Made by a program: the position numbers and the translations under genes. A stretch of DNA of 62,906 nt, the filler included, from Chrysochromulina tobinii (taxonomy: Eukaryota): NCBI GenBank assembly GCA_001275005.1. It is 5 parts of 5 records of this genome, joined end to end, with 100 filler letters (N's around TTAATTAATTAA, not from the genome) between each part and the next. Parts side by side here need not be neighbours in the genome. Positions count along the whole stretch, not along the records: positions 23,502 to 38,993 come from JWZX01001160.1; 4 more parts are not named here. One strand, written 5' to 3'. Shown piece after piece: positions 1,661-62,690 of the stretch (position 1 is the first letter of the stretch; each line of letters opens with the position of its first letter). Below the pieces are notes generated by a model. The model saw only the letters and a program-made list of their open reading frames with translations. It had not been told where the DNA came from and did no database searches.

Positions 1661-4313
1661 GTGTATGAGTGCCAACGGCCAAAGATGGCGCCCCATGAAC
1701 AGGCGGCAATTGCGGGGTATGTTGTTGATCCCCTTGATCCTGAGCATCCAGACTTTGAGGACTTGATCGCCCAGTACAAGCAGGCGTTCGCCGTCTTCGA
1801 CGACGATTCCAGCGGCACCATCACGGCCAGCGAGGTGGGCCTCGTGATGCGGGCCCTCGGACGGAACCCAACAGAGGCAGAACTCGAGTCCATTATCAAG
1901 GAGATTGATTCCAGCAACGACGGCGTGCTCGACTTTGACGAGTTCTGCTTCTGCATGGCCAAGGCGAAGGAAGGGAAGGATGCGCCCCCGGCGGGCGCGT
2001 CGCAGGCGCCTGCGCTGGCGGCGATCGTGAAGGAGAATGGGCTGCTCGGCGACATCAAGAACTTCTTCGTCAAAGACAGAGGCATCAAGAACTTCTTTGC
2101 CAGTCTCCGCGGCCCTTCTGCTGAGGAGATTGCGGCGGCCAAAGCGGCGGCTGAGGCGGCTGCTGTGGCGAAGGCGGAGGCGGCCAAAGCGGCGGAGGCG
2201 GCGGACGCGGTGAGGCAAGCAGAGATGAAGGCGCTGGCGGACGAGGTGGCCACCCGCATCCTCGATGACGCCATGGCGATGGCGGCGAAGGATCAAAAGG
2301 AGGCGCAGGAAGCGGCGGCCGCAGCCGCGGCTGCCTCTCCCCTCGCATCCACCCCCAGGCCGCCGGGGCAGGTGGGGGGGGTGCTCGCCATTGCCAAGGG
2401 TGCGAGCTCGAGGCTCAGGTCACTCTCTTTCTCGCCGCGGGGCGCGAAGACGCCCTGGGGCCCGGTCGCTGAGGCGCCCGGCGCCGCGGCGCTTGTCGTC
2501 ACTGCGCCCGTCGCTGCGGCGCCCGTCGTCGCGGCGCCCGTTGCCGCGGCGCCCGTTCTGACGGCGCCACCCGTAGCCCCTTCTTCGATCTCATCCTCCG
2601 ATCCGCGTACCGTCGCGAGATCGCGCCAGATGACCTTCGACAAAGCCCCGGGGGCCAAGATGGGCGTGCGCTTCAAGGAGGGCAAGCGCGGCGCGATCTT
2701 GATCAACGAGATCGCGCCGGGCAGCCCCCTGGCACGCTTCGCGAGCAAGGGTGACCAACTCCTCTCCATCAACGGGGAGGCATGCAACCAAGGGTACGCA
2801 AAATTCGCCCAGACCTTCGACGCCGCGACAGGCCAAGTGCAGCTCGTCGTCCAGCCGAAAGTGCCTACATCACTGTGGAAACTCCTCTTCGGTAAGAAGA
2901 CGTCGAGCGGACGCCTTCGACCACTGGAGATCGAAGCCAGCGGCGTCGTCAGCGGCGTCGTCAGCGATGTCCCGCTGGAGCAGCAGCTCACGGCTAAGCT
3001 CACGGCGGCCGCCATATCCGATGCCAACGAGCTGCCCGGCGCGCCTGCCGTCGCTGCGACCGAGGTCATTAAGGTCATTCATGCTCCTCCTACCGAAGCT
3101 CCTACCGCGCCTACCGTCGCTGAGCCTGAGGCAGCCAATCGGATGGCGGCTCCACAGGCGCCTCCTGAGCCAGCTGCAATCTCGGCTGCAATCTCGGCTG
3201 CAGCGGCTCCACAGGCGCCTGAGCCAGCTGCAATCTCGGCTGCAATCTCGGCTGCAGCGGCTCCGGCGGCGCGTGAACTGCTCACTACGGCGCGCGAGTC
3301 GCTGAATGAGTTGCCTCCGCAGCGAAAGTCTGCTGCCGTCGGTCCGCCTCCTCCTCCTCCGCCTCCACCTCCGCCTCCACCGCGGCGCACGGCACCTACC
3401 GTGGCGCTTATGGAGCCGCCCCAACCATCGCCCCAACCATCAGTGGAAGCTTCCACTCCAATTGCCGAGGCGTTTCGTGGGGCGCTCGAGGCGGCGCCGG
3501 TGCTCTCTGGCCCCGGCCCTGCGCTATGGGCCGCTATGAAGGCAGAAGCTGACGAAGCCGCGGAAGCGGGCCTGAAAGTTGCCCGAGCTTCGGACACAGA
3601 TGCAATCTCAGATGCAATCTCAGATGCCCGAGCTTCGGACACAGATGCAATCTCAGATGCAATCTCAGATGCAATCTCAGATGCCCGAGCTTCGGACGCA
3701 GATGCCAAGATCATCTTCGCTGCTGCGATGCTTGCAGAGGTAGCAGAAGAAGAAGAGGCAGGGGCGCGGGAAGAGGACCAGCAAGAGGCGGCGCGGTATG
3801 AGCACGAGGGGCGTGCGCCCCAAACGCCCACCAAACGTGCGCACCAAACGGCCGGGCAGGCGCCGTCCCGGGCTCTCCAATTCCCGACGCCCCCCAGCCC
3901 CCCTTCCCCCCAGCCCCCCCTTCGCTGCAGCCGAGCACGGCAGCACGTCGTACGTCGGCGAGCGCAAGAGGGGCAAAAAGGACGGGTACGGTACGGAGCG
4001 CTTTGCCGACGGCTCCACGTACGAGGGCCAGTGGAGGGACGGGCTTGCCGAGGGACGTGGAACGTACCGGTTCGCCGACGGCGCCACCTACGAGGGCGAG
4101 TATAAGGCTGGGCAGAGGGAGGGGAGCGGCATGTACACGTTTGCCGACGGTGCCGTCTACGAGGGCAAATGGAAGGCCGGTAAGATGGAGGGGCGGCTCG
4201 CCTTGGCGCATGCGTTGGCGATGCCGTGCCTTGCGTTCCCATGCCTCGACGGGGAGCGTCGAGATGGGCGCGGCGTGGACCGGTTTGGCGACGGAGCAGT
4301 CTGGCAGTTGTGA
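1661..4313 (+). CDS. Multidomain protein: calmodulin-like EF-hand pair, PDZ domain, Ala/Pro-rich linker, C-terminal MORN repeats (one intron from ~3796 to 3913 or 3943)
   Basis: EF loops DDDSSGTITASE and DSSNDGVLDFDE. PDZ-like KMGVRF...INEIAPGSP...GDQLLSING. MORN repeats (YEGQW..G..EGRG.YRFADG) lie in the next frame and are joinable by a GT at 3796 and a frame-compatible AG. Confidence 0.75.
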
Positions 4314-6087: not shown

Positions 6088-8724
6088 TCACGCGAGCTCG
6101 AGCTGCTGCTGCATCCACGCGATCGCCGCAGCCCATTCGGCGGGTGAGAAGGTCGAGGGGTCTTCATTATGGGCGTCGCGTGGCCGCCCACGCAGCTGGA
6201 TCACCTGTGCAATCAGGCGCAATCAGACGCAATCAAGAGGCAATCAGGAGGCCATCAGAGGGGCCATCAGAGGCCAATCAGAGGCCAATAGAGGCCACTC
6301 AGAGGCGATCACCTCCGTGCCCTCGAGATTGCCATCTCGCTCGAGAGCGTAGACCAGACCTGTGGGGAGAGGCGCCGTGGTGAGCGCTTGCGTGCAGAGG
6401 CTCCATCGAGAATGCCATCTCGCTCGAGAGCGTAGCCCAGACCTGCCCGCAATCAGTCGCAATCAGTCGCAATCAGTCGCAATCAGTCGCAATCGATCGC
6501 AATCAGCGTAGCCCAGACCTGCCCGCCCGATGATTCGATCGCAATCAGTCGCAATCAGTCGCAATCAGTCGCAATCAGTCGCAATCGATCGCAATCGGTC
6601 GCAATCAGTCGCAATCAGACCTGCCCGCCCGATGATTCGATCGCTCGGATGGAACACGATGCATTTACGACCGGATGCGAGAGTACGCCAATGACGCGCC
6701 GTCTCGAGCGGCGCGCGCCATGGCGGTGAGTTGAACGCGAGGCTGAGCGTCGCGCGCACCTGATGAGGGGCGCAATCAGACGTAATCAGAGGTCATCAGC
6801 TGCAATCAGAAGGTCATCGCACCTGAGGAGGGGCGCAATCAGACGTCATCAGAGGTCATCGGCTGTAATCAGAAAGTCATCGCACCTGAGGAGGGGCGCA
6901 ATCAGACGCCATCAGAGGTCATCGGCTGTAATCAGAAAGTCATCGCACCTGAGGAGGGGCGCAATCAGACGTCATCAGACATCCTCATAAGTAATCAGTT
7001 GCCATCCATTGCAATCAGCGTACCAGCCGGCGCACGAGCGGTCGGTCAGGCAGACCGAGCATGGCCCCCAAGACGCAGACAGACACGTCACTCAGAGAGC
7101 TAAACGAGCGCAAGTTGACGCACGGGTACTGTGGGAAATAGGTGGCCGCAACCTCGGCGGCCACTCCTCCACCCATCGACTGTGGGGAGAGGGACGCAAG
7201 CAGATGTGATCAGTGAATTCGCATTCATTCGAAATCAGCCGCAATCGATCGCAATCAGCATTGATCAATCGCAATCAGCCGCAATCAATCAGTCGCAATC
7301 AGTCGCAATCAGTCGCAATCGGTCGCAATCAGTCGCAATCAGTCGCAATCAGTCGCAATCGGTCGCAATCAGTCGCAATCAGCCGCAATCAGTCGCAATC
7401 AGTCGCAATCAGCCGCAATCAGCCGCAATCAGCCGCAATCAGTCGCAATCAGCCGCAATCAGCCGCAATCAGTCGCAATCAGCACGGTCACCTGACCCAG
7501 CAGCAATCAGTCGCAATCAGCCGCAATCAGCCGCAATCAGCCGCAATCAGCATGGTCACCTGACCCAGCAGCAGAATGCAACGGCTCGGCTCAGTCCCCG
7601 CCGCGAGCCTTCCCTCGCAGTAACGAACGCAACGTGCACCGTCCTCGACCATGCCACTCGCACCAAGCAGGAGTCCCCCCGATCGGCCCACGTCACGGTA
7701 GTCGTAGGCAATCACCGAGCAACCCACCTGATGAGGGAGGCAATCAGAGGGCCATCGGAGGCCATCAGGGAGGCACTCAGAGGTAACTCAGAGGCACTCA
7801 TCAGAAGCAATAATCAGAGGCAATCATCAGCACTCATCATCAGCACTCATCATCAGCACTCATCAGAGGCAATCAGTCGCAATCAGTCGCAATCAGAACC
7901 TCAAGCGCGAGCTGCAGCTTCGACCCAAAGCCGCACTCGAGGAACTCGCCGTTGCCACCAAACGTGACAATCCACTTGCCGCTCGCGCGAGGATGCTCGA
8001 TGGCGGCGGCGTCGATGTGACCCAATCGCAGCCGCGTCACCTGGAATTGCGTCCCTGATAAGGCCATGGCGCACGCCTCGCCGGGCGCCATGGCGGCGAG
8101 CGTCCGGTCGATGGTGACGCCACTCCTCGTCACTTTCGAGATGATGAGGGCGGGCATGAGCAAGCCCACGCGCACGATCGTCCACACGAGGCGCAGCGCG
8201 AGCAGCAGCACGGCGGTGTGGCACGCGTACGACGTGTGTGCCGACGCGTTGAGGGGGCCGAGCACCACAGCGCTCGAGGCGGCACTCAGGAGCACCGTGA
8301 TGGCGGTGGCCGGACTGATCGGGTGCAGCGTGGGAGGCCACCCGAGCTTTCCGACCAATGACACGCCCACAACGAGCGCGCCACACGGCGTCGAGACCGT
8401 GATGCCGGTCAGGATGAGGCCGGTGTAAGTGGAGCAGCAGCAGCCGAGGAGCGGCGCGGAGCACGCGACGCCAAACGCGAGCATGCGCACGTGCGTGGTG
8501 GAGGTGTAGCTGCCAACGAGCCGACTGGCGCTGCCAACGAGCCACGAGATGAAGCTGAGGGTCCCCTCGACGGCAAGGAACGCAACTAAAAGGGTGCTCA
8601 TGAAGTCTGCGGGTGCGTTCACGCCCTTGCTCTCTTCAGCCTTCGCACTGTGAATGGTATTGAAGGTCAAACTTGGGGAGCTCCTGCGTGCCAAGTCCAT
8701 GAAGGTCGCCCGAGAGTTAACCAT
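6088..8724 (-). CDS. Membrane-anchored alpha/beta hydrolase (ABHD/BEM46-like); introns 7728-7899, 7180-7559, 6760-7023, 6360-6620, 6205-6312
   Basis: Spliced product contains FGGNGE, AYDYRDVGRS, the nucleophile elbow GQ|SMGG across an intron, Asp in HPSDRII and His in DAHNE. N-terminal TM helices present. All introns are GT-AG and phase-compatible. Start codon uncertain. Confidence 0.8.
7232..7550 (-). repeat. Intronic decamer array (CTGATTGCG[A/G])n, about 30 copies
   Basis: Read directly as GCAATCAGTC/GCAATCAGCC repeats on the + strand. Confidence 0.95.
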
Positions 8725-13220: not shown

Positions 13221-14840
13221 ATGGCCGCGGAGGAGCCGAAGGTCGTGTGCATCGTGGGCGTGGCCGGCTTCATCGGCTCGCACCTGCTCGAGAAGATCCT
13301 CCGCGAGCGTCCGTGGCAGGTCATCGGCGTCGACATGGCTGAGCCGACTAAGATCGAGCAGCTCCTTGGCGGGGAGAAGAAGTGGGCCGCGCGCTTCGAG
13401 TTCCACCAGATGGACATCGTCAAGGCGGGGCCCGAGCTCAAGAAGCTCGTCGCGCGTTCCGACGTCGTCATCAACCTCGCCGCCATCTGCAACCCGTCGG
13501 AGTACATCAAGCAGCCCGTCAACACGATCAACTCGAACTTCACGGACGCACAGGACTGCATCAAGTTCTGCGTGGAGTACGACAAGCACCTGATCCATTT
13601 CTCCACGTGCGAGGTCTACGGCCGTACCCTCGCCTCGTACGGGCTGCCCGCCGAGGACCCGAAGAATTACATTCTCGACGAGGAGACGACGCCGATGATC
13701 ATGGGGCCCGTCTCGGCGCAGCGATGGTGCTATGCATGCGCGAAGCAGCTGGTGGAGCGGCTGATCTACGCGCACGGCACCGAGAACAACCTCAAGTTCA
13801 CCATCGTCCGCCCGTACGCATCAAGAATGATTGCCTCTGATTGCCTCTAATTGCCTGTAATTAACCTCAAGTTCACCATCGTCCGCCCGTACGCATCAAG
13901 AATGATTGCCTCTGAGGACCTGATTGCCTGTAATTGCCGCCTCAATTGCCTCTAATTGCCTCTACTTGCCGCCTCTAATTGCCGCCGCACAGGTACAACT
14001 GGATCGGCCCTCGAATGGATTACGTGCCTGGTGTGGATGGAAAGGATGACGGCCAGCCGCGCGTGCTTGCCTCATTCATGACGGCGTTGATGAAGGGCGA
14101 GCCGCTTGTGCTCGTCGACGGCGGAGAGGTCTACCGTACCTTCTGCTTCGTCGACGACGCTGTCGAGTCGGTCGTGCGCATGATCGATCGCCCCGAGAAG
14201 TCCATCGGGCATGCCTTCAACGTGGGCAACCCGATGAACAACATCCTCCACTGATGACCTCTGATGACCTCTGATGACCTCTGATGACCTCTGATTGCCT
14301 CCCTCATTGCATGCAGGTGGGCAACCCGATGAACAACATCCAGATTAAGGAGCTCGCCGCTCTCATGATTGAGTTGTACTCAGGCCTGACGGGCAAGCCG
14401 CTCGGGACGACGCGCGATGTGGCCGGCGTCGACTACTACGGCAAAGGGTACCCCCCTCTCTCGCATTCGACCTCCCCACATCTCCCCACATCTCCCCACA
14501 TCTCCCCACATCTCCCCTTCTCTCGCATTCTACCTCTCTCCATCTCCCCACATCTCCCCACATCTCCCATTCGAGGACTCCCGACCTTCCTCATCCCTGG
14601 CTCTGCATGCAAGTGCTCACCACGGCGCCATCACGTCCCCACAGGTACGAGGATTCCGACCTTCGGATCCCTTCGATGCGTCTCGTCAAGTCGCAGCTCG
14701 ACTGGGAGCCGGCGACGAGCTTGAGGCAAGCGATGGAGGCGACGATGAAGGTCTTCATCGAAAAGTACGCGGACAAGCTCGCGTCGAAACGTGCAGCACA
14801 GGAGGCGGACATGCCCGCTGCCAAGGCTCTCAAATTGTAG
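13221..14840 (+). CDS. AXS: UDP-D-apiose/UDP-D-xylose synthase-like extended SDR (introns 13814-13992, 14222-14316, 14448-14644)
   Basis: Motifs GVAGFIGSHL, INLAAICNP, HFSTCEVYG, QRWCYACAKQL, FTIVRP|YNWIGPRMD, PRVLASF, LVDGG and YGKG|YEDSDLRIP match plant AXS/UAS motifs. The three GT-AG introns restore the frame. Confidence 0.9.
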
Positions 14841-15755: not shown

Positions 15756-16067
15756 GTCTGTCTGGGGAGCGCGCCGCACGCTCCCGCGGCTGCGGACCGG
15801 TGTCCGGTGGACGCGTGGACCAGCGACCACGGGCCGCGCGACCGCGCGGGGCTCGACGTTTTTTCACTCAGGCACGAGGCAGCGGAATTCACACCGGTCT
15901 AACACCGGTCGTCACAGTGCAGATCACCCTACCCAGCCATGCAACACCACTGCATACCTGCCTAACATGGACGTCTTCAACCGAACCGCCGCTGACCACG
16001 TCAGCCCATGCACACCGCTTCCTGGTTCCTGCTAACGTCGTCTCGGCCATCTCCGCCCGACGCACCC

Positions 16068-16853
16068 TCAGCCCACCTGGTGAACCACGGTCTGCGTCTG
16101 AACGATCGTCTGGCGCGTCAGGTCGCCAATCGTCAAGCAGCACCCTAGCTGTGGGACACACACGAATCCGCAGCATGCAATTGTGAAGGGCACCTCATCG
16201 TCAGGGGGCAGTGCCGCGCTGTGAACGAGGCAGCAGCACTGATGCTGCGCTTTGATGCACGTGGTCTGCTCCTGGAGGCAGCGGATGGCCATGCACACGC
16301 ACGCGATCCCGTCCTGCGGCTGCTCGAGCGCTTGGGTACCTAACTTGAGGCAGCACTCCACCTCGAGGCAGCAGAGGACACCCTTAGCTACCACGCCGCA
16401 GCAGTGATCACTCGCATCCGTGCACGAGGTGTTGCAACAGAAGCAGCCGTGGATGAGCGTGAGCTTCGACTCGTCGATGCTGTCCGGGAGCATCCGGTGC
16501 TTCTGCGCAGCGGCAGAGGTATTCACGAAGACGTTCTGTTGCGTGACGACTGTCGTCGGTGGGGCCGCGACATGAATGATCTGCGGCTGCGGCGCTGCCA
16601 TGTGGGCGTTGACGTTCACTTGAGGCTGGGCGTACTGAGGCTGCTGGGCGTACTGAGGCTGGGCGTATTGAGGCTGCTGAGCGTACTGAGGCTGCTGAGC
16701 ATACTGAGGCTGCTGGGCGTACTGAGGTGCACCCCCGTAGACGGGCTGAGCCATCGGCGGTGCTCCTCCGTAGACGGGCTGTGCCATCGGCGGTGCCCCC
16801 CCGTACTGGTAGACCGGCACGCCCATCGCGGGTTGGTTCGGGTTCGGGTACAT
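16068..16853 (-). CDS. Pro/Gln/Tyr-rich N-terminus plus Cys-rich domain protein, copy B
   Basis: GGAPPMAQPVY and QQPQYA repeats, then HGCFCCNTSC...CCLEVECCLK...QCCCLVHSAALPPDDEVPFTIACCGFVC. Near-identical to 17107-17937. Confidence 0.8.
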   Translation of the reverse strand: MYPNPNQPAMGVPVYQYGGAPPMAQPVYGGAPPMAQPVYGGAPQYAQQPQYAQQPQYAQQPQYAQPQYAQQPQYAQPQVNVNAHMAAPQPQIIHVAAPPTTVVTQQNVFVNTSAAAQKHRMLPDSIDESKLTLIHGCFCCNTSCTDASDHCCGVVAKGVLCCLEVECCLKLGTQALEQPQDGIACVCMAIRCLQEQTTCIKAQHQCCCLVHSAALPPDDEVPFTIACCGFVCVPQLGCCLTIGDLTRQTIVQTQTVVHQVG

Positions 16854-17106
16854 GTCTGGTCTTGCTCCGCCAAACAGCCGCTTGCTTACAAGTAGAAGCG
16901 CGGGGCAGGCCCCGACTGGCTTTCGTTCTCCAGTTGAATTCACACCGGTCATCACAGTGCGGATCACCCTACCCAGCCCAAGCAACACCACTGCATACCT
17001 GCCACATGGACGTCTTCAACCGAACCGCCGCTGGCCACGTCAGCCCATGCACGCCGCTTCCTGGTTCCTGCTAACGTCGTCTCGGCCATCTCCGCCCGAC
17101 GCACCC

Positions 17107-17937
17107 TCAGCCCACCTGGTGAACCACGGTCTGCGTCTGAACGATCGTCTGGCGCGTCAGGTCGCCAATCGTCAAGCAGCACCCTAGCTGTGGAACACAC
17201 ACGAATCCGCAGCATGCAATTGTGAAGGGCACCTCATCGTCAGGGGGCAGTGCCGCGCTGTGAACGAGGCAGCAGCACTGGTGCTGCGCTTTGATGCACG
17301 TGGTCTGCTCCTGGAGGCAGCGGATGGCCATGCACACGCACACGATCCCGTCCTGCGGCTGCTCGAGCGCTGGGCTACCTAACTTGAGGCAGCACTCCAC
17401 CTCGAGGCAGCAGAGGACACCCTTGGCTACCACGCCGCAGCAGTCCTCCATGCACGCGCACGAGGTGTTGCAACAGAAGCAGCCGTGGATGAGCGTGAGC
17501 TTCGACTCGTCGATGCTGTCCGGGAGCATCCGGTGCTTCTGCGCAGCGGCAGAGGTATTCACGAAGACGTCCTGTTGCGTGACGAATGTCGTCGGTGGGG
17601 CCGCGACATGAATGATCTGCGGCTGCGGCGCTGCCATGTGGACGTTGACGTTCACTTGAGGCTGAGCGTACTGAGGCTGCTGGGCGTACTGAGGCTGCTG
17701 AGCGTACTGTGGCTGCTGAGCATACTGAGGCTGCTGAGCGTACTGAGGTGCACCCCCGTAGACGGGCTGAGCCATCGGCGGTGCACCCCCGTAGACGGGC
17801 TGAGCCATCGGCGGTGCACCCCCGTAGACGGGCTGAGCCATCGGCGGTGCTCCCCCGTAGACGGGCTGAGCCATCGGCGGTGCACCTTCGTACTGGTAGA
17901 CCGGCTCGCCCATCGGTGGGTTCGGGTTCGGGTACAT
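17107..17937 (-). CDS. Pro/Gln/Tyr-rich N-terminus plus Cys-rich domain protein, copy A
   Basis: 276-aa ORF and tandem paralogue of copy B, offset 1039 nt at the stop codons. The 3' flank is also duplicated. Confidence 0.8.
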   Translation of the reverse strand: MYPNPNPPMGEPVYQYEGAPPMAQPVYGGAPPMAQPVYGGAPPMAQPVYGGAPPMAQPVYGGAPQYAQQPQYAQQPQYAQQPQYAQQPQYAQPQVNVNVHMAAPQPQIIHVAAPPTTFVTQQDVFVNTSAAAQKHRMLPDSIDESKLTLIHGCFCCNTSCACMEDCCGVVAKGVLCCLEVECCLKLGSPALEQPQDGIVCVCMAIRCLQEQTTCIKAQHQCCCLVHSAALPPDDEVPFTIACCGFVCVPQLGCCLTIGDLTRQTIVQTQTVVHQVG

Positions 17938-20219: not shown

Positions 20220-23200
20220 TCATCGAAGCTCATCACCTAGCGGTGCGAGGAGCGCGGCCATAGCGCGCAGGAGGGGCAGCGCACGGCCGGCGGTCATAGC
20301 AGCGGCCGCGCTCACGGCGGGCCGGGGCGGCCGCTCGCGCCCCCCGCACTGGTCGTCACGCTCGCCCGAGCGCGAGCCGCGGACGCTGCCGTTCCCGCTG
20401 CTGCTGCCGCTGCCGCTGCCGCTGCTGCTGCCGTCGTCGGCGTCGCGCGCTTGGAAGGGCGCTTGGAACGGCTTCAGTCCTCGTGAGGGGAGGAGGTCCG
20501 CGAAGATGGAGGGCGGCTCGGTGTCAATCGAGAGCATCAGCTGACCTGTAATGATGTGCAATCATGTGCAATCAGTAGCCATCAGCAGCAATCAGTTGCA
20601 AGGGCTGCTCGGTGTCAATCGAGCGCATCCGTGCCCAAATATGGTTCGGCATCCCAAAGATGGCAATCGAGCGCATCAGAATCGAGCATCATCTCTCACT
20701 GATTGCCTTCCTAATGGTAAAGGTCATCAGTGATGCAATCAGAGAGGCAGTTAGGAAGGCAATTACCGTACGAATGGTAAAGGTCGATGGTGGCATTGCT
20801 CGGCCCGACTCGACCCCGACGTGCCTTGCTCATCTCATTATCGATGACCACGCCTACGTGGCCTATCCCTGGACGGCCGTCGGCTGTTGGGCGCGTGCTC
20901 ACGCTGTACGATCCGTCCGCCTGCCGCAATCAGAGGTCATCAGAGGTCATCAGAGGTCATCAGAGGTCATCAGAGGTCATCACGCTGTACGATCCGTCCG
21001 CCTGCCGCAATCAGAGGTCATCAGAGGTCATCAGAGGTCATCAGAGGTCATCGGAGGTCATCAGAGGCCATCAGAGGTCATCAGAGGCCATCAGAGGTCA
21101 TCAGAGACCATCAGAGGTCATCAGAGGTCATTAGAGGCCATTCACACCTGCCCTTTGGAGAAGCTCGCCTTCACACTTCCCGCCATCGAGCCCAGCTCAA
21201 CCGCGTAGTTCGCGCCCGCGACGGCGCCGCCGTAGCTCGTGGACGCGCCCTCCGAGATTAAGCCCGAGATCCCAATCGAGCCGTGGCGCGAGATTGCGAC
21301 GAGATTGGGAGCGCCGAGAGCGGGCACCGAGCCGTTGATGACCTCGGTCATCGGTAAGAGCACCTGCTCGATGAAGGGACTTCTGATGAGGGACGCAATC
21401 AGAGGCAATCAGAGGCAATCAGAGGCCATCAGAGGCAATCAGAGCACCTGCTCGATGAGGGACTTCTGATGAGGGACGCAATCAGAGGCAATCAGCAGAG
21501 GCAATCAGCGCACCGGGTCGGTGAGGGAGATTCCGCCAGATCCGGAGCTCGCAATCAGATGCTATCAGAGGCAATCAGAGGCAATCAGAGGCAATCAGCG
21601 CACCGGGTCGGTGAGGGAGATTCCGCCAGATCCGGAGCTCAGATTGAATACATGCGCCGTCGCGAGCGTGGCTGAGAGCGACGCCCACTCGCTCGAGAAG
21701 CGAAGGCCCTGTGGGGAGAAGGAGGGGCGCGCCGTGGTGAGCACTTGCATGCAAGCCGCGCCCACCCGCTCGAGAAGGGAAGGGCCTGTGGGGAACTGGA
21801 GGACGCCATCAGGTGCAATCAGGGACGCCAGCATATGCAATTAGTGACGTCATCAGGCGCCATCAGACGCAATCAGACGCAATCAAATGCAATTAGGGAC
21901 GCAATCAGACACCTGCGAGCCGTAGGTTGGGGCGGGGCAGGTGCAGAAGAGAAAGCCATCAAGTAATTGGGGCGCCGATGGTGTAGGCGAGACGAGCTCT
22001 TCCCAGCTCAGAGTGCCGACGAGCTCCGACTGCTTGCAGAAGGAGCAATCGAGGGTGACGGTGTTGCTGAGGGAGGCGGCCCCATCGCCGTGCTCGATGA
22101 TCACGTCGGCTCGCCCGAGGAAGTGCGTACCTGTGGGGAAGGGGGGGAGGATGGCGCCGTGGTGAGCACTTGCATGCTCGATGGTCACGTCGGCTCGCCC
22201 GAGGAAGTGCGTACCGCCCATGATGATAAAACCACTCGGACTGGCGGGGGGGGAGGGAGGGGAGGGGGGAGGGGGTCATCAGGGGTCATCAGAGGTCATC
22301 AGCGGTCATCAGGGGTCATAAGGGGTCATCGGCCGTCCTCAGCCGTCATCAGCCGTCCTCAGCCGTCCTCAGCGCACCTGTACAAACGCGAGCGCGCCGC
22401 GCCGAAGGTGCCATTGCCCAAGATGGCGCCCGACACGGCGCCCGTCGCCGTGAGGGAGATCTCGCCGAGGACGAGCGCGTACGGGCCGCTGATTGCCTTC
22501 GCAATCACGTGCGGCAGCGGCAGCGGCTCGCGAGGCGCCGGCTTCTTGCCACGTGGCGCGCCGAGTTGGGCGCACGCGGGGCCGCCGATCCAGCCGTTGA
22601 GGAAGCGCAAGCCGGGCGGCAGCTCGATGAACATGCACGGCTGATGAGGGAGGCAATCCGCATGCAATCAGGAAGCATGCACGGCTGGGCGACGAAGAAG
22701 ACGTAGGGTCATCAGAGGGTCATTAGAGGGTCATCATATGGTCATTAGAGGGTCATCATATGGTCATCAGAGGTTCATCAGGCGCAATCAGACGTCATCA
22801 GACGCAATCAAGGCTCCTCACCTGAGCGACGAAGACGTCATCATATGGTCATCAGAGGGTCATCAGGCGCAATCAGACGTCATCAGGGCTCCTCACCTGA
22901 GCGACGAAGACGTCGCCGACGGCGAGCGCCGCGCCTCGAGCGTCCACGCTCTGTGAGGCAAGTAGGGACGTGAGGCTGACCTGTGGGGAAAGGGGAGCGG
23001 GGCGCCGTGGTGAGCACTTGCATGCAAGCGACCACGCTCTGTGAGGCCTAATTAGGGACGTGAGGCTGACCTTTTGGCCGTTTAGTCCACGCTCAGGGAC
23101 GCAATCAGGGACGCAATCAGGGACGCAATCAGGGACGCAATCAGGGACGCAATCAGGGACGCAATTAGGGACGCAATCAGGGACGCAATCAGGGACGCAA

Positions 23201-23401
23201 TCAGGGACGCAATCAGGGACGCAATCAGGGACGCAATCAGGGACGCAATTAGGGACGCAATCAGGGACGTGAGGCTGACCTTGGCCGTTGAGTCTACGCT
23301 CAGGGCGCCGGCGACGATGATGTCTTGAATGGCGACCCCGCCCTTGCCGCGCACGGCGACGTGATGGAGCGTGTGACGCAGCAGCGCCCACGGGGATGAG
23401 G
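20220..23401 (-). CDS. Multi-exon hypothetical protein (5' end lost in the gap; about 8 repeat-rich introns)
   Basis: Successive open segments ([10 protein letters not shown]..., [10 protein letters not shown]..., [11 protein letters not shown]..., GLRFSSEW..., SPFIEQVLL..., [10 protein letters not shown]...) are separated by repeat-rich GT-AG introns such as 22981-23279. Function unrecognised and some junctions uncertain. Confidence 0.65.
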
Positions 23402-23501
23402 NNNNNNNNNNNNNNNNNNNNNNNNNNNNNNNNNNNNNNNNNNNNTTAATTAATTAANNNNNNNNNNNNNNNNNNNNNNNNNNNNNNNNNNNNNNNNNNN
23501 N
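23402..23501. other. Assembly spacer (N-run + TTAATTAATTAA + N-run)
   Basis: 100-nt spacer identical at four places. The 12-mer gives stops in all six frames. Confidence 0.97.
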
Positions 23502-34475: not shown

Positions 34476-37400
34476 CTATGCCGACAACGATTTCCACGCC
34501 TGGCCGCGCTTGAACTTGGCCAACTCGAGCACCACGCGCTTAGTCTTGACGCGCACCTTCGCGACAGACTCCTTGGGCTCGATGCGATAGAGGGTCTCAG
34601 TTTGAGTCAGCACATGAGTCACGGAACCAATCTGGACCTCGAGCCGGAAGCCCAGGTCGGTGAAGCTCGCACGCATGACGCCCTCCTCGTTGAGGGTCTC
34701 GCCCGGCCGGCCGTCAAGTACCGCCTCGAGCGGCACTGTCACCTTGACCTTTGCTTCGTCCGCGTCCTCAAACCAGTAGCCACAGCGGGCGAGGCTCGCA
34801 GTCGTCGGCGCCACGGGCATGGGGGCGGGCGGCGCAGCGAGAGCAGCGGCTGCATGCACGCCCACAGCGAGCCCGAGGCGTGGCGCCTCGATCTTCTTGG
34901 GAGACAAGGGATTCGCGCGCGCCGCAGCCGCAGCCGCCTCGCGCGCGAGCTCGATCCCCATCGTCTTCGTAAGTACCTGCATGCAAGCAGAAGGAGATAC
35001 CCAAGGGATGGGATGCACTCAGGGATGCACTCAGGGATGCACTCAGGGATGCACTCAGGGACGCACTCAGGGATGCAATCAGAGATGCAACCAGAGATGC
35101 ACTCAGTGGCAATCTCCATCTGCATCGTACGTACCACGGTGCCGCCCGTCGCGAGGGCCATCGAAACGTCCTCCGGCCGGTCTGCCCCGAGCTGCTTCGC
35201 AAGCTTCAGGGCTTCCTCTCGGTTCCGAAGCGCTTGCTCCTTACGAATAGTAGACCGGAGGCGGTCCTCCTCCTCTTGCCTTTCCTTGGCTGCGAGCTCG
35301 GCACGCTCTTGCTGTTCAACGGCCATCCTCTTCGCGTACAGTCGTCGCGCCTCCACCTCCGCCTCCTGATCGCGTACCTGCTCGCACCACTCATCGCGCT
35401 CGGCCTGCTCACACGCTTCCCACCACTCGGCAGCCTCCTCGACCTCCCCCCCCTGTTCGCTGCGAACTACGAGGCTTGTCGCCTGGGCCACGTCGCACAC
35501 GGAGAGTGAGACGCCATTGGTGGCAATCAGAGGTCATCAGTGGAGCATTAGTGGCAATCAGAGGTCATCAGGGGAGCGAGAAGCCATCGGTGGCAATCAG
35601 TGATTCGATCCGTGCCCCTTAGGGACCCGCACGGGTACTTTGGGCCCATCAGCGGCACTCAGCGGCACTCCGCGCGGCAAGCACACCTTATGCATGCCGG
35701 TAGAGCCCAGCTCGTCCTGCCACGCGTCCGCAAACGGACTCTCGTGCAGCTCCTCCTTCGAGCCGCCATTCTGGCCAGCCAGCTTCTCCATCTGCTCCAC
35801 GAGCTCGAGCGCCTTCGGTCGAAGCTTCGATCGAGGCTTGAAGACAGCACCCGCGCGCAAGAACATCTCGGCCTCAACGAGATCGTACATGTGGAATGGG
35901 TCAGCGTCCTCGAGTAGCACCTTGCCCTTGTCCGACTGCAGCTGACGGCGCACCTCGCTCTCCTCGTTCTTGTTGGCGCCTTCTCGCCAGTCGGAGAGAA
36001 CGAACTGGACGCATTTGAAGCCGCGGGTCTCATCTCGAGTGATAAGCCAGGTGGAGCTACGCATGTCGATGTGCGTGCGGCTCTCGTGATGGTCCTCCCA
36101 CCTGAGGACGCAATCAGGTGCAATCAGGTGCAATCAGGTGCAATCAGGTGCAATCAGTCGCAATCAGTCGCAATCAGGCACAATCAGGCTCTCGTGATGG
36201 TCCTCCCACCGGACGACGCGCTGATTGAGCCGGCGCTCCCACACCATCCAGCCCGCCACCTTGAGCGACAGCTTCGTGCCGTCGAGTGTCGCACAAATAT
36301 GCCGACGCTCGGCTGCCTCGGGGATGGGCACGTTGACGGTGATCTCGTACCTGCGAGATTGCAATCAGCCGCCATCAGTCGCCATCAGCCAGGAGCAGCG
36401 GCAATCAGTCGCAATCAGCCACCTCTGGGATGGGCACGTGGACGGGATCCTCTTCGCGCACCACTCTGACTCTGTGTCCTTGCGCCCTGCCACGCGGTAG
36501 TGCGTCACCGGCTTGAACCCGTCCACCTGCTGCTCTTCGACGGTGTGAGGCGGAAGGTGCAGCGGCAGCTCACGGCACCCCTCCGAGTCGCCCTCGAAGA
36601 GGCAGCGCCACCTCTGGCCGGGTTGCGCCTTGAGCATCACGAACGTCATGCAGTGCATCGCGTCAAAGTTGAACGCCTCGCCCGCGCGCGATGTGTTGAT
36701 CGGGTACGCGAAGACGCGGTTCAGCAGCTCAGACGCGCCGTGTGGCGTCACACGGATGCGCTGCTTGCCCTCGTCGGTGACCGAGAACTCAATGTCCGCG
36801 TCGTTCGTCTCCGACGCGAGCCACATGGCCAGATGCACCGTGTATCGGGTCTGGCCCCATGCCCAGTAGTAGACCATGCTCGGGTCGTTTGCCTTGGATC
36901 GAGCCTTGTATACGTCGCGCTGGTGCCGGAACTCAAGGTCGTGCATGAGCCACTGGTTGGAGTTACCCTTGAGCAGCTTGTGCTCTCGCTCCTTCTCGAG
37001 CCCCTCCTTCTTGAGCTTCTCAGAGAAGGCCGTCGATGTCTTGAGAGGGTAGTGAGGCGTCATGCCACCGCGGCAGTGCATCTTGCGCACGCACAGCTGG
37101 CAGTAGGTCATGCCGCAGCCGGAGCAGACGCCATCGGCCGGGCACGGGCACGAATCGCACAGGATGCACACGGCGAACGGGTGGATCTCCTTGACGCCCC
37201 ACGAGCGCTTCTGCTGGTCGACGAGCCACGCCGCCTCTTTGGCCGAGAGCGGACGGCCGTCACGCTTGAACTCGCCCGTGTCGTGGAACGCGTCGTAGTT
37301 CTGACGCTTCGCCGGGTCGACGAGCACATCATACGCCGACTTGAGCCGAAGGAAGAGGTCGCTCTGCACGCCACCATTGCGATCAGGGTGATGCACGAGC

Positions 37401-37492
37401 GCCTTTTTCTTGTATGCCGCCTTGATTTCGACCTCTGTGGCCGCCTGCGTAACGCCGAGCTCCTCATAGAGATTGAAGTCGAACTCCTCCAT
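34476..37492 (-). CDS. DnaJ-domain protein with B-box-like zinc finger and multiple CS/p23-like domains (introns 36351-36461, 36102-36209, ~35483-35686, 34977-35134)
   Basis: J domain with HPD. Zinc motif CSGCGMTYCQLCVRKMH. CS-like starts WGQTRYTVHL, W|YEITVNVPIP and YWFEDADEAKVKVTVPL. Phase-compatible GT-AG introns, third donor uncertain. Confidence 0.8.
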
Positions 37493-38993: not shown

Positions 38994-39093
38994 NNNNNNN
39001 NNNNNNNNNNNNNNNNNNNNNNNNNNNNNNNNNNNNNTTAATTAATTAANNNNNNNNNNNNNNNNNNNNNNNNNNNNNNNNNNNNNNNNNNNN
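38994..39093. other. Assembly spacer
   Basis: N-run + TTAATTAATTAA + N-run. Confidence 0.97.
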
Positions 39094-40665
39094 TCCGGCG
39101 CCTCGGCGGAGATCGTGAGCCCATGCGCGAGGACGAGCGAGGGGGGGGGGTGCAGCAGCCCGAGCTCCCCCAGTGTGATCTCGGCGATGTGAGCTCGCGC
39201 TTGAGTAACGGCGCGACGCTCCACACCAGGTGGCGGTCCTGGTGCAGCACGGCGCGGTGGTGGGCACTTGCATGCAAGGCAGGTCCTCAGTGGCCATCAA
39301 CGCACCTGGTGCAGCGCGAGCTCGGCGAAGCACGCGAGCGTCGTCTCGAGCGTCGGCTCGCCTGCATGCGCTGCGACGCCCGCCGACGGCGCATGGCTCG
39401 GGATGAAGCGCACGCGGCTCAGCGAGGCGCAGAAGATCGAGATCGAGATCGAGATCGAGATCGAGATCGAGATCGAGGCTGAGGCTGAGGGTGAGCGGTC
39501 GGCGGCGCCCGTCGCGCGCGCGGCGTCGTCGTCGCCGCCGTCGTTGCCGTCGTCGTCGTCCTCGGCGGTGGAGGTGAGCGCGCCGAAGTGAGCGATCAAA
39601 TGAGAGGTAAGCAAAGCGGCGCGCGAGAGCACGTCGGGCGTTGGCGCAGCCATTCGGCGCGTGGCGTGCCAAATGGCTGCGCGCCGCCGAGCTGCTGCAC
39701 CTGTGAAAGGGGGGAAAGGGGGGAGGGGGAGGGGAGGACGCCGTGCTGAGCACTTGCATGCTGTAACGGGGGGCCGAGCTGCAGCGACGCCGTGCTGGGC
39801 ACTTGCATGCTGTGACTGGGGGCGCAGCTGCAGCGTACCTTGCGCGCGCACTCGAGGAAGGTGTTGCGGTCGATCGAGGTTCGCATGCCGAGGGCGGCGA
39901 GCATTGCGAGCCACTCGTCGGTGCAGCACTCGGCCTCGGGAAAGACGGACTCGCCTCCAAAGATGTACGAGAGCACATCGACGCGGGGGTCGAGCACCTC
40001 GGAAGGCCGAAGGAGGCGCTCGCCTACCGGAACGAATGGCGTCGTCCTGAGCGCCTCGCGCAGCCGGTCGTGCTGCCGGAAGGCGTGCCAGTGGCGCAGC
40101 AGGTGCTCGCGCACCGCGCGCTGCTTGGACGACGCCAGGGAGGAGAAGGTCGGCAGCACGAAGAGCTCGCACACGTCGTGGTCCTCGAGCCGACGCACGC
40201 CCATGTCATCGAGCAGGGCGAGCACTGGTGCGGGCGCGTCGTGGGCGAGAAAGTGGACCGCCTGCGCGGCCGAAACACCCTCGCGTGGCACCGGGCGGGC
40301 CGAGGCGCGAGGGTGCCACGCATGACCATCTCCGGCGCACACGTCTCAAAGATGGGCAGCTTGGCGAGCACGGCCTTGCGGCTCGGGCTGAGCAGCCACT
40401 GCCCTCCCCGCGCAGCACGGGTTTGCGCAATCGCCGCGACGAGCGCGCGCGTGCTCGCCGGGTTTGCATGCAAGGCTCCCCACTGCACCACCCCCGCCGA
40501 GTGCGCGCTCCCTTCAAAAACAAGTGCGCCCGCCACGTGGTGCTCGTCAGACGCATCGGCGGCGAAGTAGCCCTGCCCGAGGGCCGGCGCGATGCCGATG
40601 GCGGCGGCCGCCGCTGCGGCGGCGCCCTCGGAGACCACGCGAGGCGCCGTCCCGGGCGCGCGCAC
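39094..40665 (-). pseudogene. Sacsin-like repeat-region fragment, frameshifted, 3' end in the gap
   Basis: LAKLPIFET, LRTTPFVPV..LLRPSEVLDP....IF.....FP......WL..L..LG and a second LSRVRFIP segment resemble sacsin repeats. A frame change occurs near 40335. Introns carry the conserved acceptor cassette. Confidence 0.55.
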
Positions 40666-46233: not shown

Positions 46234-47805
46234 ATGCCGTCCTGCCCGAACGCAATCGCCGCCACGCTACTGCTGTCACTGCTGCCCTCGCACACGACGA
46301 GTGCCGCCTACCTGGGGCTGCGCAACCAGGGCAACACATGCTACATGAACAGCCTGCTGCAGTCGCTGCACCACCTGCCCGAGTTCCGGCGCGCCATTTA
46401 CAGCATCCCGACGTCGCTGCAGTCGAACGCGTCGTCGGCCACGGAAAACTTGTTCGCTCTCGCGCTGCAGCGCCTCTTTTTCCAACTCGAGTGCGGCGAG
46501 CTCGTCGGCGCCTCTGAGGTGGGCACGGAGCAGCTCACGCGCAGCTTTGGCTGGACACGTGCCGATGTCATGGTGCAGCAGGACGTGCAGGAGTTTGCGC
46601 GGATGCTGTGCGACGCGTTGCAGCAGAGCATGCGTGCGCACGGCATGCGTGACGCGGTCGCCGAGCTCTTCGAGGGGCGCACGAGCTCGGTCACGCGCTG
46701 CACGCGCGTCGACTTCAGCTCTGAGAAGGAGGAGCGCTTCTATGACCTGTCGCTGCCTGTACAAGGTTGCCGCTCGTTGCACGCGGCGCTGCGCCAGTTC
46801 GTGCACGCGGAGCAGCTGTGCGGCGCCAACCAGTACAACACGCGCGACCCGCGCTTCGGCAAGCAGGACGCGCGCCGCGCCACGCGCTTCAAGTCTCTAC
46901 CGCCGGTGCTCCAGGTGAATCTCGATGAATCTCGACGAATCTCGATGAATCTCGAGCGCGTCGGGCAGACTGAGGGCCTCTGACCACCTCTGACCACCTC
47001 TGACGACCTCTGATGGGTGCCTGTGCAGGTGCATCTGAAGCGCTTCGAGTATGACGTCGAGAGCGGCTCGATGCGCAAGCTGCAGCAGGCCTTCAGCTTC
47101 CCAACGCGGCTGAGCCTCGCGCGCTTCATGGCTGAGAGTGCCCGGAACGGCGCTGGCGCCCCGCCGCCCGAGTACGAGCTCCATGCAGTCCTCTCCCACG
47201 GGGGTGACGCGGGCAGCGGGCATTACATCGCGTACGTGCGCCCACGCGGCACGGCACAGTGGTGGGAGTTTGACGACACGCGCGTGCGGCAGGTGGAGGA
47301 ACACGTGGCGGTGAAGCAGCAGTTCGGAGGGCGGCACTCTCCCGTGAATACACGCAATGGCGGCGGCCTCTTCGGCTTCGGCGGCGGCCCGATGAATGCA
47401 TACATGCTCGTCTACGTACGCCGTGATCTGATCGTCGCCCGGGACGGCGCCGGTGCGCCCTCCTCCTCCGCCGCCACCGCCGCGTCACCGGCCGCCTCGG
47501 GAGATGTGACAGAGCCGAGATTGGGAGATGTGACGGAGCCGAGATCGGGAGATGTGACGGAGCCGAGATTGGGAGATGTGACGGAGCCGAGATCGGCGCT
47601 CGCGCCCGAGGTACGCGCCGCCTTTGAGCGCGAGCTCGGGCTGCGCTCGCGACGACGGCGCGCGGCGACGCCGGCAGTAGCCTCCGCCGCATCAGCCAGA
47701 GTGGCGGTGGGCGCCGTGATGGGCGCCCCTGGCGTGGCGATCAACAGCGTGGACTTCGAGGCGCCGGAAGGGGAGGCCCATGCGGCCGAGGTGGACGAGG
47801 AGTGA
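46234..47805 (+). CDS. Ubiquitin-specific protease (USP7-like catalytic domain only); intron 46915-47028
   Basis: Cys box GLRNQGNTCYMNSLLQ, QQDVQEF, LPPVLQ|VHLKRF, His box HGGDAGSGHYIAY, WEFDD and NAYMLVY. Confidence 0.9.
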
Positions 47806-48312: not shown

Positions 48313-48412
48313 NNNNNNNNNNNNNNNNNNNNNNNNNNNNNNNNNNNNNNNNNNNNTTAATTAATTAANNNNNNNNNNNNNNNNNNNNNNNNNNNNNNNN
48401 NNNNNNNNNNNN
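48313..48412. other. Assembly spacer
   Basis: N-run + TTAATTAATTAA + N-run. Confidence 0.97.
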
Positions 48413-51433: not shown

Positions 51434-53190
51434 TCAGCGCGCGGGTGCGTTCCACGCCTTGCCGTGGCCACACCGCTTGGCGACAGTGCAGACGGCCGCG
51501 AGAAGCTGTACGCCAGAGTACCATGGAGAGCTCACGAGCGCGCCGTGCGCGGCCGCCTGTCGCAGGCAGCCGCGCGCCTCTTGGCTGGCGATTTGGAGCA
51601 ACGCACTCTCGATGTGCTCGGCGCTCGTCAGGTTGAGAAGCTCGAGAGGGTAGCCCACGCGTCGCGCCGCGTCCAAGTAGGCCGCCATCGGGTAGCCGAT
51701 CACCGGGATTCCATGCGAGAACCACCAATGCATGCGTGTAGGCGGCCGGTTGTGGATGGCCATCGGCCCACCCTGCTGGTGCCCCGGCCTCCACACAAGT
51801 CCAACCTGATGAGGGATGCAATCAGAGGCCCTCAGAAGCCATCAGAGGCAATCAGATCGGACTCCGCAAAAGTCCCACCTGATGAGGGATGCAATCAGAT
51901 CGGACTCCGCACAAGCCGTACGTCGATCAAGCGCAGTAGGGCTTCGGACTCGTAGAAGCGGCGCTGGCGCGTGGGGTCGTCCGGATTGGCTACGCCGGCT
52001 GCAATGGTCGCCGCCGCCGTGGCGACGGCACGGGCGCTCGCGACGGCGCTGGAGCTCGGGACGGCGCTCGGTTTGGCTCGCAAGTGGCATGCAATTGGCA
52101 GCGCGAGCGGCTCCAACTCTGCGAGAGGGTGCGGCATTGGCGCATCGATAGCGCGCGGGCGCGCCGCTCGCGCGCCGCCGCGCCGGTGCAGCGCCGCTGC
52201 GCTCGCGCTCGCATTCTCCGAGAACCACTCCGTGTTCGAGCAGTTATGGTGGTACGGTTGGATTCGCATGCCGTCTGCTGCCGAGTTGATCACGTACAGC
52301 GTCGTGTTGGCGCGACAGCAGCCGCGCACGATACTTCGCATGTCGTCGCGCGTCGGCATGTTCTTGGCGTCCGACATGACGAACCCGACGCCACGCAGTC
52401 GCTCGCGCGTCGACGCCGCCACGCTCCAACCGCCCAGGTTGCCGTGAGCGTGCGGCAGCACGATCGCCGTGTGGCCCCACTTTGCAATCTCGGCAGCGTG
52501 AAATTCGGTCTGCACAATCATCGCGTCCATCGCCGAGTAGTGCTCGTTTGAAAACGTCGCCTGGCTGAACGCACGATGGTTGTCGATCGAATCGCCGATG
52601 ACCACGGCGCCACGGCGGCGGCACGCCGCTGCAAACCACGCTACCGGATACTTGAGAATGATGCACGCCGACGGCCCGCCGATTTGGTCAAAGTGCCATT
52701 CGAGGCGCCGCGAGTCGCGGGTCGTATTGACCGGCGAGGTGACCAAGATGTACGAGCACTGCGCGCCGTGCCGTGCCACGCTCTGATTGAGCACGCTCAC
52801 CATGAGCTGCCCGCGCATGACCATCGACGCGAGCCCGTTGGTGCCGATGATGACAATGCGTGCGCCAGCGGCGCAGCGCTCGAGACGTGTGACGTCGTCC
52901 TCGCCTTGGCTAATCACGCGACGTTCGAGTTGTGGCAGCCGGCAGGGACGGGGAGTGGCCACAGCCGATGCATGTATCAGCATTCGGCGAGGGCGCCGCC
53001 TCGAGCATGTTGAAGAATGAAACCCCACCACCCTACTCCCATCACCTGATCGCATCACCAACGGTACCACACCGGCCTCAAGCTCAACCACCTCGGCCTC
53101 TACGCTGAACGCTGCCTCGGTCACTTTTGTGCGCATGCCCGACTTGGCCGCTCTAGGTCTAGAGCCCGCACTACAGTACATTGAATACAT
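51434..53190 (-). CDS. Hypothetical protein, possibly glycosyltransferase-like (intron 51806-51921)
   Basis: Long exon ...LLRLID| splices to VGLVWRPG...RPPTRMHWWFSHGIPVIGYP, reminiscent of a GT-B C-terminal lobe. Function is inference and the start is uncertain. Confidence 0.6.
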
Positions 53191-60344: not shown

Positions 60345-60444
60345 NNNNNNNNNNNNNNNNNNNNNNNNNNNNNNNNNNNNNNNNNNNNTTAATTAATTAA
60401 NNNNNNNNNNNNNNNNNNNNNNNNNNNNNNNNNNNNNNNNNNNN
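60345..60444. other. Assembly spacer
   Basis: N-run + TTAATTAATTAA + N-run. Confidence 0.97.
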
Positions 60445-60934: not shown

Positions 60935-62690
60935 TCCCGACAGGGCGATCAGCGGCGATCGCTGAAGCAGCTAGCGGCCTTTGCCACTCAAGCTTCCAAG
61001 AGCGGCCGCGAGCATCACACCCGGCAGGGCAATCAGCTGCCTGTGCCACTCAAGCTTCCGAGAGAGCGGAGACCGGAGAGCGACAGCTTAGATCGAGAGT
61101 GTTGAGAGTGTTGCCGACGCAGCCGCGGCGGCGAGCGTAACACCCGACAGGGCTATCAGCGGTGCCAGCGAAGGGCTTGCGCCGCTCAAGCCTAGAGCAA
61201 GAGCAACTGCTTTGATCATCTTTGATCGAAAGCCTAGCCGACGCAGCTGTGGCAGCGAGCGTCACACCCGACAGGGCGATCAGCGGTGCGCGCGCCGAGC
61301 AGCGAGCGACCTGTGCCCCTCAAGCTTCGGAGAGAGCGAGAGCAGCAGCTTTGATCGAGAGCGTATAGCCGACGCAGCTGCGGCGGCGAGCGTCACACCC
61401 GACGAACAGGGCGATCAGCGGTGCCAGCGAAGGTACAGCGAAGGGCCTGCGCCGCTCAAGCCTCTTAGAGCGAGAGCAGCTGCTTTGATCGAGAGCGTAT
61501 AGCCGACGCAGCTGCGGCGGCGAGCGTCACACCCGACAGGGCGGTCAGCGGTGCCTGTGCCGAGCAGCAAGCGGCCTATGCCACTCAAGCTTCCCAAGGC
61601 GATCAGCGGTGTCACACAACTGACAGGGCGGTCAGCGGTGCCCGCGCCGAGCAGCAAGCGGCCTATGCCACTCAAGCTTCCGAGAGAGCGAGAGCACAGC
61701 AGCTTTGACCGAGAGCGCATAGCCGTCGCAGCCGCAAGCGTCACACCCGGCAGGGCGATCAGCGGCCAGCGAGCGGCCTGTGCCACTCAAGCTTCCGAGA
61801 GAGCGAGAGCAGCAGCTTTGACCGAGAGCACATATAGCCGTCGCAGCCGCAAGCGTCACACCCGGCAGGGCGATCAGCGGCCAGCGAGCGGCCTGTGCCA
61901 CTCAAGCTTCCGAGAGAGCGAGAGCAACAGCTTTGACCGAGAGCACATAGCCGTCGCAGCTGCAAGCGTCACAGCCGGCAGGGCGGTCGGCGGTGCCTGC
62001 GCCGAGCAGCAAGCGGCCTATGCCACTCAAGCTTCCGAGAGAGCGAGGGCAGCACGCGCCGAGCAGTGAGCGGCCTGTGCCACTCAAGCTTCCGAGAGAG
62101 CGAGAGCAGCAGCTTGGACCGAGAGCACATAGCCGTCGCGGCCGCAAGCATCACACCCGGCAGAGCGATCAGCGGCCAGTGCCACTCAAGCTTCCGAAAG
62201 AGCAAGAGCAGCTTTGATCGAGAGTGTTGCCGACGCAAGTGTGCGGCGAGCGTCACACCCGATAGGGCGATCAGCGGTGCCCGCGCCGAGCAGCAAGCGG
62301 CCTGTGCCACTCGAGAAGCCTGTGCCGAGCAGCAAGCGGCCTGTGCCACTCACGAAGCCTGTACCCGGCGGCGAGCGTCACACCCTATCACACCTGACCG
62401 ACAGGGCTATCAGCGGTAACAGCGAAGGGCCTGCGCCGCTCAAGCCTCTTAGAGCGAGAGCAGCCGCTTTGATCATCTTTGATCGAAAGCCTAGCAGACG
62501 CAGCTGTGCGGCGAGTGTCACACCCGACAGGGCGATCAGCGGTGCGCGCGCCGAGCAGCGAGCGACCTGTGCCCCTCAAGCTTCGGAGAGAGCGAGAGCA
62601 GCAGCTGTGTCACTCAAACCTCGGACTCAAACCTCGGAGAGCGAGAGCAGCGGCTTTGATCGAGGGCGTATAGCGAGCGTTTAGCCGACG
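60935..62690. repeat. Complex mosaic satellite, about 14 degenerate units of ~60-140 nt
   Basis: Recurrent modules GCGTCACACCCG(A/G)CAGGGCGATCAGCGG, CCTGTGCCACTCAAGCTTCCGAGAGAGCGAGAGCAGCAGCTTTGA and TAGCCG(A/T)CGCAGC. Confidence 0.9.

Follow-up and report, generated by a model that had tools for sequence, protein, structure and literature searches.

How does an intron come to begin with a copy of the exon that follows it, and what does such a copy tell about the way the intron arose? Intron birth outside introner bursts has long been an open question because recent gains rarely show their source. Chrysochromulina tobinii, a freshwater haptophyte alga, is in culture and has many wild variants; in two of its genes, several introns each let one read the target footprint together with the probable source of the filler. 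The window analyzed here is a stretch of 62,906 nucleotides (63 kb) made of five contig pieces, the joints being N runs around a 12-nt linker (23402-23501, 38994-39093, 48313-48412 and 60345-60444). The first piece has 23,401 bases, as does the contig with the public annotated C. tobinii proteins P0190 and P0211. All footprint counts refer to the window and to a 1.4-kb extension in L009, one of the 11 haptophyte-like loci (L002-L011 and L013) among the 80 metagenome loci used for comparison. The question is raised by a DnaJ-domain gene with the following features.

34476-37492, minus strand: DnaJ-domain gene, 5 exons, 811 aa, colinear with haptophyte orthologues of about 800 aa
36351-36461, minus strand: DnaJ intron 1; a 12-nt ordinary-looking donor, a decayed copy of exon +6..+35, an array and AG
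36102-36209, minus strand: DnaJ headline intron, 108 nt; exon copy at 36187-36209 (23 nt), decamer array and acceptor at 36102-36186
36079-36101, minus strand: first 23 nt of the next exon, where the repeat has its second copy
35483-35686, minus strand: DnaJ intron 3; no exon copy, an internal negative
34977-35134, minus strand: DnaJ intron 4; decayed copy (15/20) and 12-mer array, the junction being placed by homology and by the point, 35131, where RNA record 6 stops

The original prediction held that three introns of the window open with 23, 25 and 17 nt of their next exon: 36102-36209, an intron of the UDP-apiose/xylose synthase (AXS) gene at 14222-14316, and 22981-23279. When the window was scanned for GT...AG pairs with the same sequence after the AG, all three copies proved exact, and two further cases came to light that the original prediction does not list, 22131-22214 and 6443-6518. 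Record 6 of RNA contig X12 bridges 36078 to 36460 with 162 letters (the junction of 36102-36209 is not listed singly), and since 162 equals 381 - 108 - 111, the introns 36102-36209 and 36351-36461 are both removed, in sum. As had been proposed, the donor GT is the start of the duplicated exon segment and splicing restores the orthologous protein: the spliced DnaJ protein tiles its orthologues with no indel at the perfect-copy junction. In DNA run X8 both junctions of 36102-36209 are present at depths of 39.5 and 48.4, about the single-copy level. The intron and its copy were found in 15/15 clustered close variants, exon 2 reading into the copy in each; no empty allele occurs among these 15. 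The intron is absent in five DNA-like orthologues, P0129 (on a 35.8-kb contig), P0140, P0142, P0145 and P0147. Three observations concern the rest of the gene. At 34977-35137 (minus strand), P0228 has one valine fewer than the window model; either its allele is empty or another donor, 3 nt upstream, is used. Unspliced forms of 34977-35134 are common in RNA contigs, where retention and DNA carry-over are not separated. Near 35790 (LVEQ|MEK), the window lacks an intron with an ordinary donor that is present in a near-identical lineage (P0183, 65 contigs; P0171, 64).

The AXS gene carries the second exact copy, in the middle one of its three introns.

13221-14840, plus strand: UDP-apiose/xylose synthase (AXS) gene, 4 exons, 382 aa
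13814-13992, plus strand: AXS intron 1; 4-nt match to the next exon and a polymorphic 75-bp duplication of exon end and donor
14222-14316, plus strand: AXS intron 2; exact 25-nt exon copy (left extension 0), decamer array and AG
14448-14644, plus strand: AXS intron 3; 4-nt match, a different array, a decayed internal exon copy from 14572 and an acceptor cassette at 14604-14644

All three AXS joints are read in RNA contigs. The joint 14221>14317 is exact, with GT..AG borders and 95 nt skipped, and 25 letters fit on either side of it; the spliced protein has no indel relative to orthologues at this junction. Both copies of AXS intron 2 are held by each of L009 and L010, two independent assemblies, and the intron is absent in all three DNA loci that cover the site (L007, L008 and L011). 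This tally leaves aside L002-L006, which may be transcripts, and L013, which stops short of the AXS intron sites; coverage of AXS in runs X18, X20 and X21 is too thin for scoring. The intron is also absent in eight read-through proteins that have introns elsewhere, including the nearest one, P0186 (90%). P0208, P0214, P0228 and P0237 read across introns and, as they may be partly spliced RNA, were kept out of the empty-allele tally. Unspliced forms are present in RNA contigs alongside spliced ones; for AXS intron 1 they reach a depth near that of the spliced form, retention and DNA carry-over not being separated. A contig of X20 at depth 2.2 lacks the 75-bp duplication of AXS intron 1, which is a hint only. 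In the AXS gene of another haptophyte (L011, 263-484), an intron that would need a GA donor starts with a copy (11/12) of the exon after it and contains a 15-mer array; use of a GT donor instead would leave a 3-aa duplication.

Short-read contigs break in arrays and array lengths differ among assemblies, as would be expected if the copies came from faulty assembly, or else from chance similarity. Yet both junctions stand in independent DNA contigs (X8, L009 and L010 hold both copies or junctions), 15 variants of several origins read through the copy, and mismatched intron/exon pairs never reached the footprint threshold (0/132). We give hardly any credence to artefact or chance, and the possibility of assembly artefacts that the original prediction had raised against itself largely falls away. 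The footprint was scored by aligning positions +3..+20 from the donor with +3..+20 of the next exon at a threshold of at least 11/18 identities, with mismatched pairs (n=132) as control. Six of the 12 curated introns, eight of them taken from the original prediction, passed, against none of the mismatched pairs (control maximum 9); the proposed comparison of intron 5' ends with their next exons was thus carried out at the scale of the window. In the set defined solely by RNA and homology (n=7, all AXS and DnaJ introns), the footprint was present in 3/7 and an internal copy in 2 more. The observation of exon-copy introns holds and is confirmed as more than chance. The series of decayed copies that had been read alongside the perfect ones survived in part: 34977-35134 and 51806-51921 match at 15/20 each, but 46915-47028 and 6205-6312 reach just 7/18, within the control range. 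Intron 36351-36461 does hold a decayed copy, of exon +6..+35, but behind a 12-nt ordinary-looking donor. The remaining introns and arrays of the window are as follows.

22981-23279, minus strand: stacked-event intron; 17-nt exact copy, 12-mer array, exon-junction copy, 42-nt copy and acceptor cassette
22131-22214, minus strand: predicted intron, in frame, the cleanest case; 40-nt exon copy (39/40) and 44-nt acceptor cassette
21709-21912, minus strand: exon copy and cassette stacked behind an older acceptor; the copy does not start with GT
21364-21603, minus strand: array intron with stacked duplications; the donor matches the next exon at 6/7
6360-6620, minus strand: predicted intron; three stacked exon copies, two arrays and a cassette, including 6443-6518 (14-nt copy)
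6205-6312, minus strand: predicted intron; 6-nt match only
51806-51921, minus strand: predicted intron; two stacked decayed copies
46915-47028, plus strand: predicted intron of a gene that is presumably ubiquitin-protease-like, judging by its motif
39701-39838, minus strand: predicted intron; decayed exon copy and two diverged cassettes, judged by eye
39239-39305, minus strand: predicted intron of opposite polarity; acceptor supplied by a 10-nt copy of the upstream exon end
3146-3264, plus strand: in-frame antisense array with duplicated flank inside an ORF, as DNA sequence
3580-3705, plus strand: second in-frame antisense array with duplicated flank, 7-nt junction overlap, as DNA sequence

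The order of parts within a unit is exon copy, filler, AG and exon. Copies are 4, 6, 14, 17, 23, 25, 40 and about 42 nt long, so that there is no fixed duplication length. The fillers are arrays of 10-12-mers, which we take to be rich in branch-site-like motifs, or a cassette of 36-54 nt. All six cassettes found by motif lie directly after an exon copy (6/6, scores 25-75; a score of 24 is reached by 3.7% of 1122 control pairs). For 36102, 14222 and 22131, the left extension of the repeat is 1, 0 and 1 nt with 44-85 nt of filler, which shows that the acceptor did not come from the duplicated exon. In this respect the window departs from the duplication of a proto-splice AG|GT as described in the available text: there too the donor comes from duplicated exon sequence, but both splice sites go back to the duplicated AG|GT and the duplication itself forms the intron, whereas the headline cases have an imported acceptor (PMC2891723, PMC3296678). 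G stands at +5 in 4/4 near-perfect copies of at least 17 nt, against a coding background of 175/535. The junction between copy and filler overlaps by at least 3 nt in 8/12 events, with a sum of 37 against about 10 expected; for the two headline introns (36102-36209 and 14222-14316) the strict test gives just 0 nt of overlap in one and 1 nt in the other. The first array unit at the DnaJ headline site differs from that of the window in most other variants, which may hide an overlap of 2-3 nt.

The fillers resemble the ends of other introns of the genome. Acceptors defined by motif are followed by GT in 24/37 cases, against 75/1608 and 101/1421 for all YAG (5-7%), and in three runs the loose-end consensus behind an array acceptor reads as a donor-like GT, with 20, 24 and 31 contigs and an agreement of about 0.5. 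The cassette and array patterns were not found in viral contigs; a single match in a bacterial genome was taken as chance. TPRT is marked by a target duplication of variable length, by a precise end and by microhomology on the 5' side. The variable length of the duplications and the precise AG end would fit an origin of this kind, in which a non-LTR reverse transcriptase, primed at a nick, would reverse-transcribe the 3' end of an excised intron RNA or of a short SINE-like RNA, the cassette being a non-autonomous introner; the six cassettes, 63-91% alike over 36-54 nt and with similar 5' starts, point the same way. However, the array fillers (n=3) are just 56-71% alike, the cassette start lies upstream of the likely branch motif, and fillers without an AG end, as well as the case of opposite polarity, would be left unexplained. 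We regard such retroposition as quite unlikely.

The absence of terminal inverted repeats, which the original prediction had noticed, was seen in 9/9 inserts tested (best 4-5/10). With respect to introners, splicing is precise and orthologues lack the introns; a fixed short target duplication and inverted repeats were not found, and by the features tested the exon-copy introns are not members of classical introner families. In a published screen of thousands of genomes, C. tobinii scored 0 introner families in the part of that report available (PMC12130899). The introner-like elements of Symbiodinium and Polarella (classes 1, 4, 5, 6, 8 and 10) resemble the present case, according to the available text, in that the donor comes from the 5' end of the target duplication, the acceptor lies in the insert and the next exon opens with a donor-like motif; they differ in their fixed duplications of 3-8 nt and their defined families, whereas in C. 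tobinii the duplications are long and vary in length, the fillers are heterogeneous and terminal inverted repeats are absent (10.1101/2020.10.14.339549). Introners of a marine Chrysochromulina MAG, from the same genus, share a target duplication without inverted repeats, and 39239-39305 has their polarity; as far as they are described in the sources at hand, they have a 4-bp duplication, carry a donor and co-opt an acceptor, unlike the C. tobinii copies (10.1101/2022.06.06.494994; PMC9860276).

The closest likeness is to the neointrons of Daphnia pulex, attributed to staggered double-strand breaks, with repeats of 4-12 bp in 33 cases (PMC4202315, available text). There, as here, a direct repeat is common to the new intron and one adjacent exon, and inserts are stacked in young introns; parallel gains at one site and variation within populations are also reported (PMC4202315). 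In the window, both a repeat common to the intron end and the adjacent exon and secondary inserts or internal repeats in young introns were found. The C. tobinii repeats differ in reaching 17-42 nt and supplying the donor, and their filler can be recognised as the 3' end of introns found elsewhere in this genome, unlike what the text on Daphnia describes (PMC4202315). Direct repeats of this general kind, common to a new intron and the exon next to it, were known before from Daphnia and from the introner-like elements of dinoflagellates. The C. tobinii case resembles a Daphnia-type gain with donor recruitment as in introner-like elements, and differs in duplication length and in its traceable filler. 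Direct repeats of 4-30 bp near splice sites have been reported broadly (PMC11782384, as far as its available text goes), and the C. tobinii genome paper, in its available part, mentions introns once and does not mention this pattern (PMC4580454). No description of an exon-copy footprint in haptophytes was found in the literature searched, and supplements outside that search may bear on the point.

With a probability of roughly 0.55, we propose that these introns arise when a staggered exon break is repaired with the copied 3' part of another intron, followed by selection for splicing. A broken end in an exon would pair over a few bases with an array or cassette at another place; repair would copy through the acceptor of that other intron and rejoin upstream, duplicating 4-42 nt. 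Survival in exons would be limited to products whose first letters are an exonic GT, in most cases followed by G at +5, and whose last are AG, because splicing of these would restore the message exactly. After birth, local re-duplication and decay of the copy would follow, and the direct repeats could also allow clean loss. The footprint also takes other forms: one without an AG end lies inside 22981-23279, 39239-39305 has opposite polarity, and the arrays at 3146-3264 and 3580-3705 are antisense, in frame and inside an ORF. These cases fit a mutation that is independent of splicing, and it is somewhat probable that one mutational process covers all footprint classes. Both antisense arrays sit within an EF-hand/PDZ reading frame at 1652-4105.

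Is an existing intron perhaps only refurbished? The 5' part of an old intron might be replaced through repair templated by spliced mRNA and running into the next exon, or through duplication of an acceptor and exon start followed by deletion of the first unit. Units stacked at existing acceptors are many, some of them before exons that do not start with GT; by rough, uncomputed reasoning, their number suggests an excess over random placement. Stacking of this kind at 51806, 6360, 21709, 22981 and in the L009 extension would agree with renewal of this kind, as would the local re-duplications that segregate at three introns (P0168, P0189 and AXS intron 1). The position of 36351-36461, an intron found with its copy in P0229 and P0230 (98% identical), is moreover common to the 71%-identical orthologue P0142, whose intron has the same donor type and no copy. 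A position shared with a distant orthologue is what the original prediction had itself named as refuting a gain, and this counts against its reading for this intron. Neither perfect-copy position, however, occurs in any DNA-like orthologue, the antisense in-frame arrays have no intron to renew, and in P0168 stacking is a later step on an intron that already carries a copy. A shared position also weighs less where parallel gain at one site is common, as in Daphnia with 43/90 (PMC4202315, available text). Renewal of old introns is unlikely in our view. Tandem units across an existing exon-intron boundary (stacked units at 13788-13935 and 6755-6979, and inside 21364-21603, the first copy not being among them) recall the amphioxus 'mirages', tandem duplications across such boundaries; mirages as described in the available text need an existing intron and do not give an exon copy right behind the upstream exon with imported filler (PMC3087553).

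Another way to reach an exon copy is by displacement of the splice sites, the first copy being the original exon end, a copy of it being placed behind the old acceptor and the donor being shifted to a GT further upstream. In three other lineages (P0012/P0076, P0023 and P0026) the AXS gene has an intron at NNIQ, a position 2 nt beyond the end of the 25-nt AXS copy, and the copy in L011 ends 3 nt past an intron position seen in P0023, as such sliding would predict. It needs two steps, though, the perfect cases have no old donor after the copy, and P0186, which is the nearest of the DNA-like AXS relatives, has no intron at NNIQ; we consider sliding very unlikely.

Intron presence differs between close relatives for 21364-21603 and possibly for 22131-22214. 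Intron 21364-21603 is absent in four variants on 11 contigs, 102-103/107 aa identical (96%), in which both flanking introns are unspliced; its 6/7 donor match resembles the common donor, and gain versus loss is not polarised. A 7-nt exact copy inside this intron was rejected as a donor copy, being part of a stacked re-duplication. Intron 22131-22214 is absent in P0233, which has one copy and no insert, and in distant homologues; the single copy in P0233 could reflect partly spliced RNA or assembly collapse of the 40-nt repeat. P0189 has an extra unit at this intron. Its 84 nt are coding in annotation P0190 but absent in distant homologues, so that P0190 is probably mis-annotated there; 22981-23279 is removed in the same protein. 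The three FastTree trees have weak support near the window (14 near-duplicate or long-branch rows were omitted from one and 3 from another, and the third is of 31 chosen rows).

The claim of ongoing intron gain is partly supported. The two headline introns, 36102-36209 and 14222-14316, are absent in the DNA-like orthologues that cover them and presence varies between close relatives, but the position of 36351-36461 is shared, many footprints are re-duplications, and the direction of gain or loss in close relatives is not fixed. New introns are likely still being made by repair of a broken exon with the tail of another intron. Most introns of this class precede an exon starting with GT, so that each would match any exonic GT and the class would seed itself. 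It is a tentative reading, to which we give somewhat less than even odds, that intron birth here is self-seeding and transposon-free: the genome's own intron 3' ends would be copied into exonic GT sites, the long duplication serving as donor and each intron templating the next, with births, re-duplications and clean losses segregating in lake populations. Should the gain be confirmed, a productive route escapes screens that rely on whole-intron similarity, and there is a direct mechanistic cause for the donor-like GT with which exons start. If the self-seeding reading is true, the origin of introns could be watched allele by allele in a genome scored empty by introner screens.

Other duplications were also seen in the window. 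The segments 15902-16805 and 16942-17826 form a direct duplication of about 900 bp with 95% identity, containing 18- and 33-nt tandem repeats, and the last contig piece has large dispersed repeats at 61092-62400, each unit being about 320-355 bp long.
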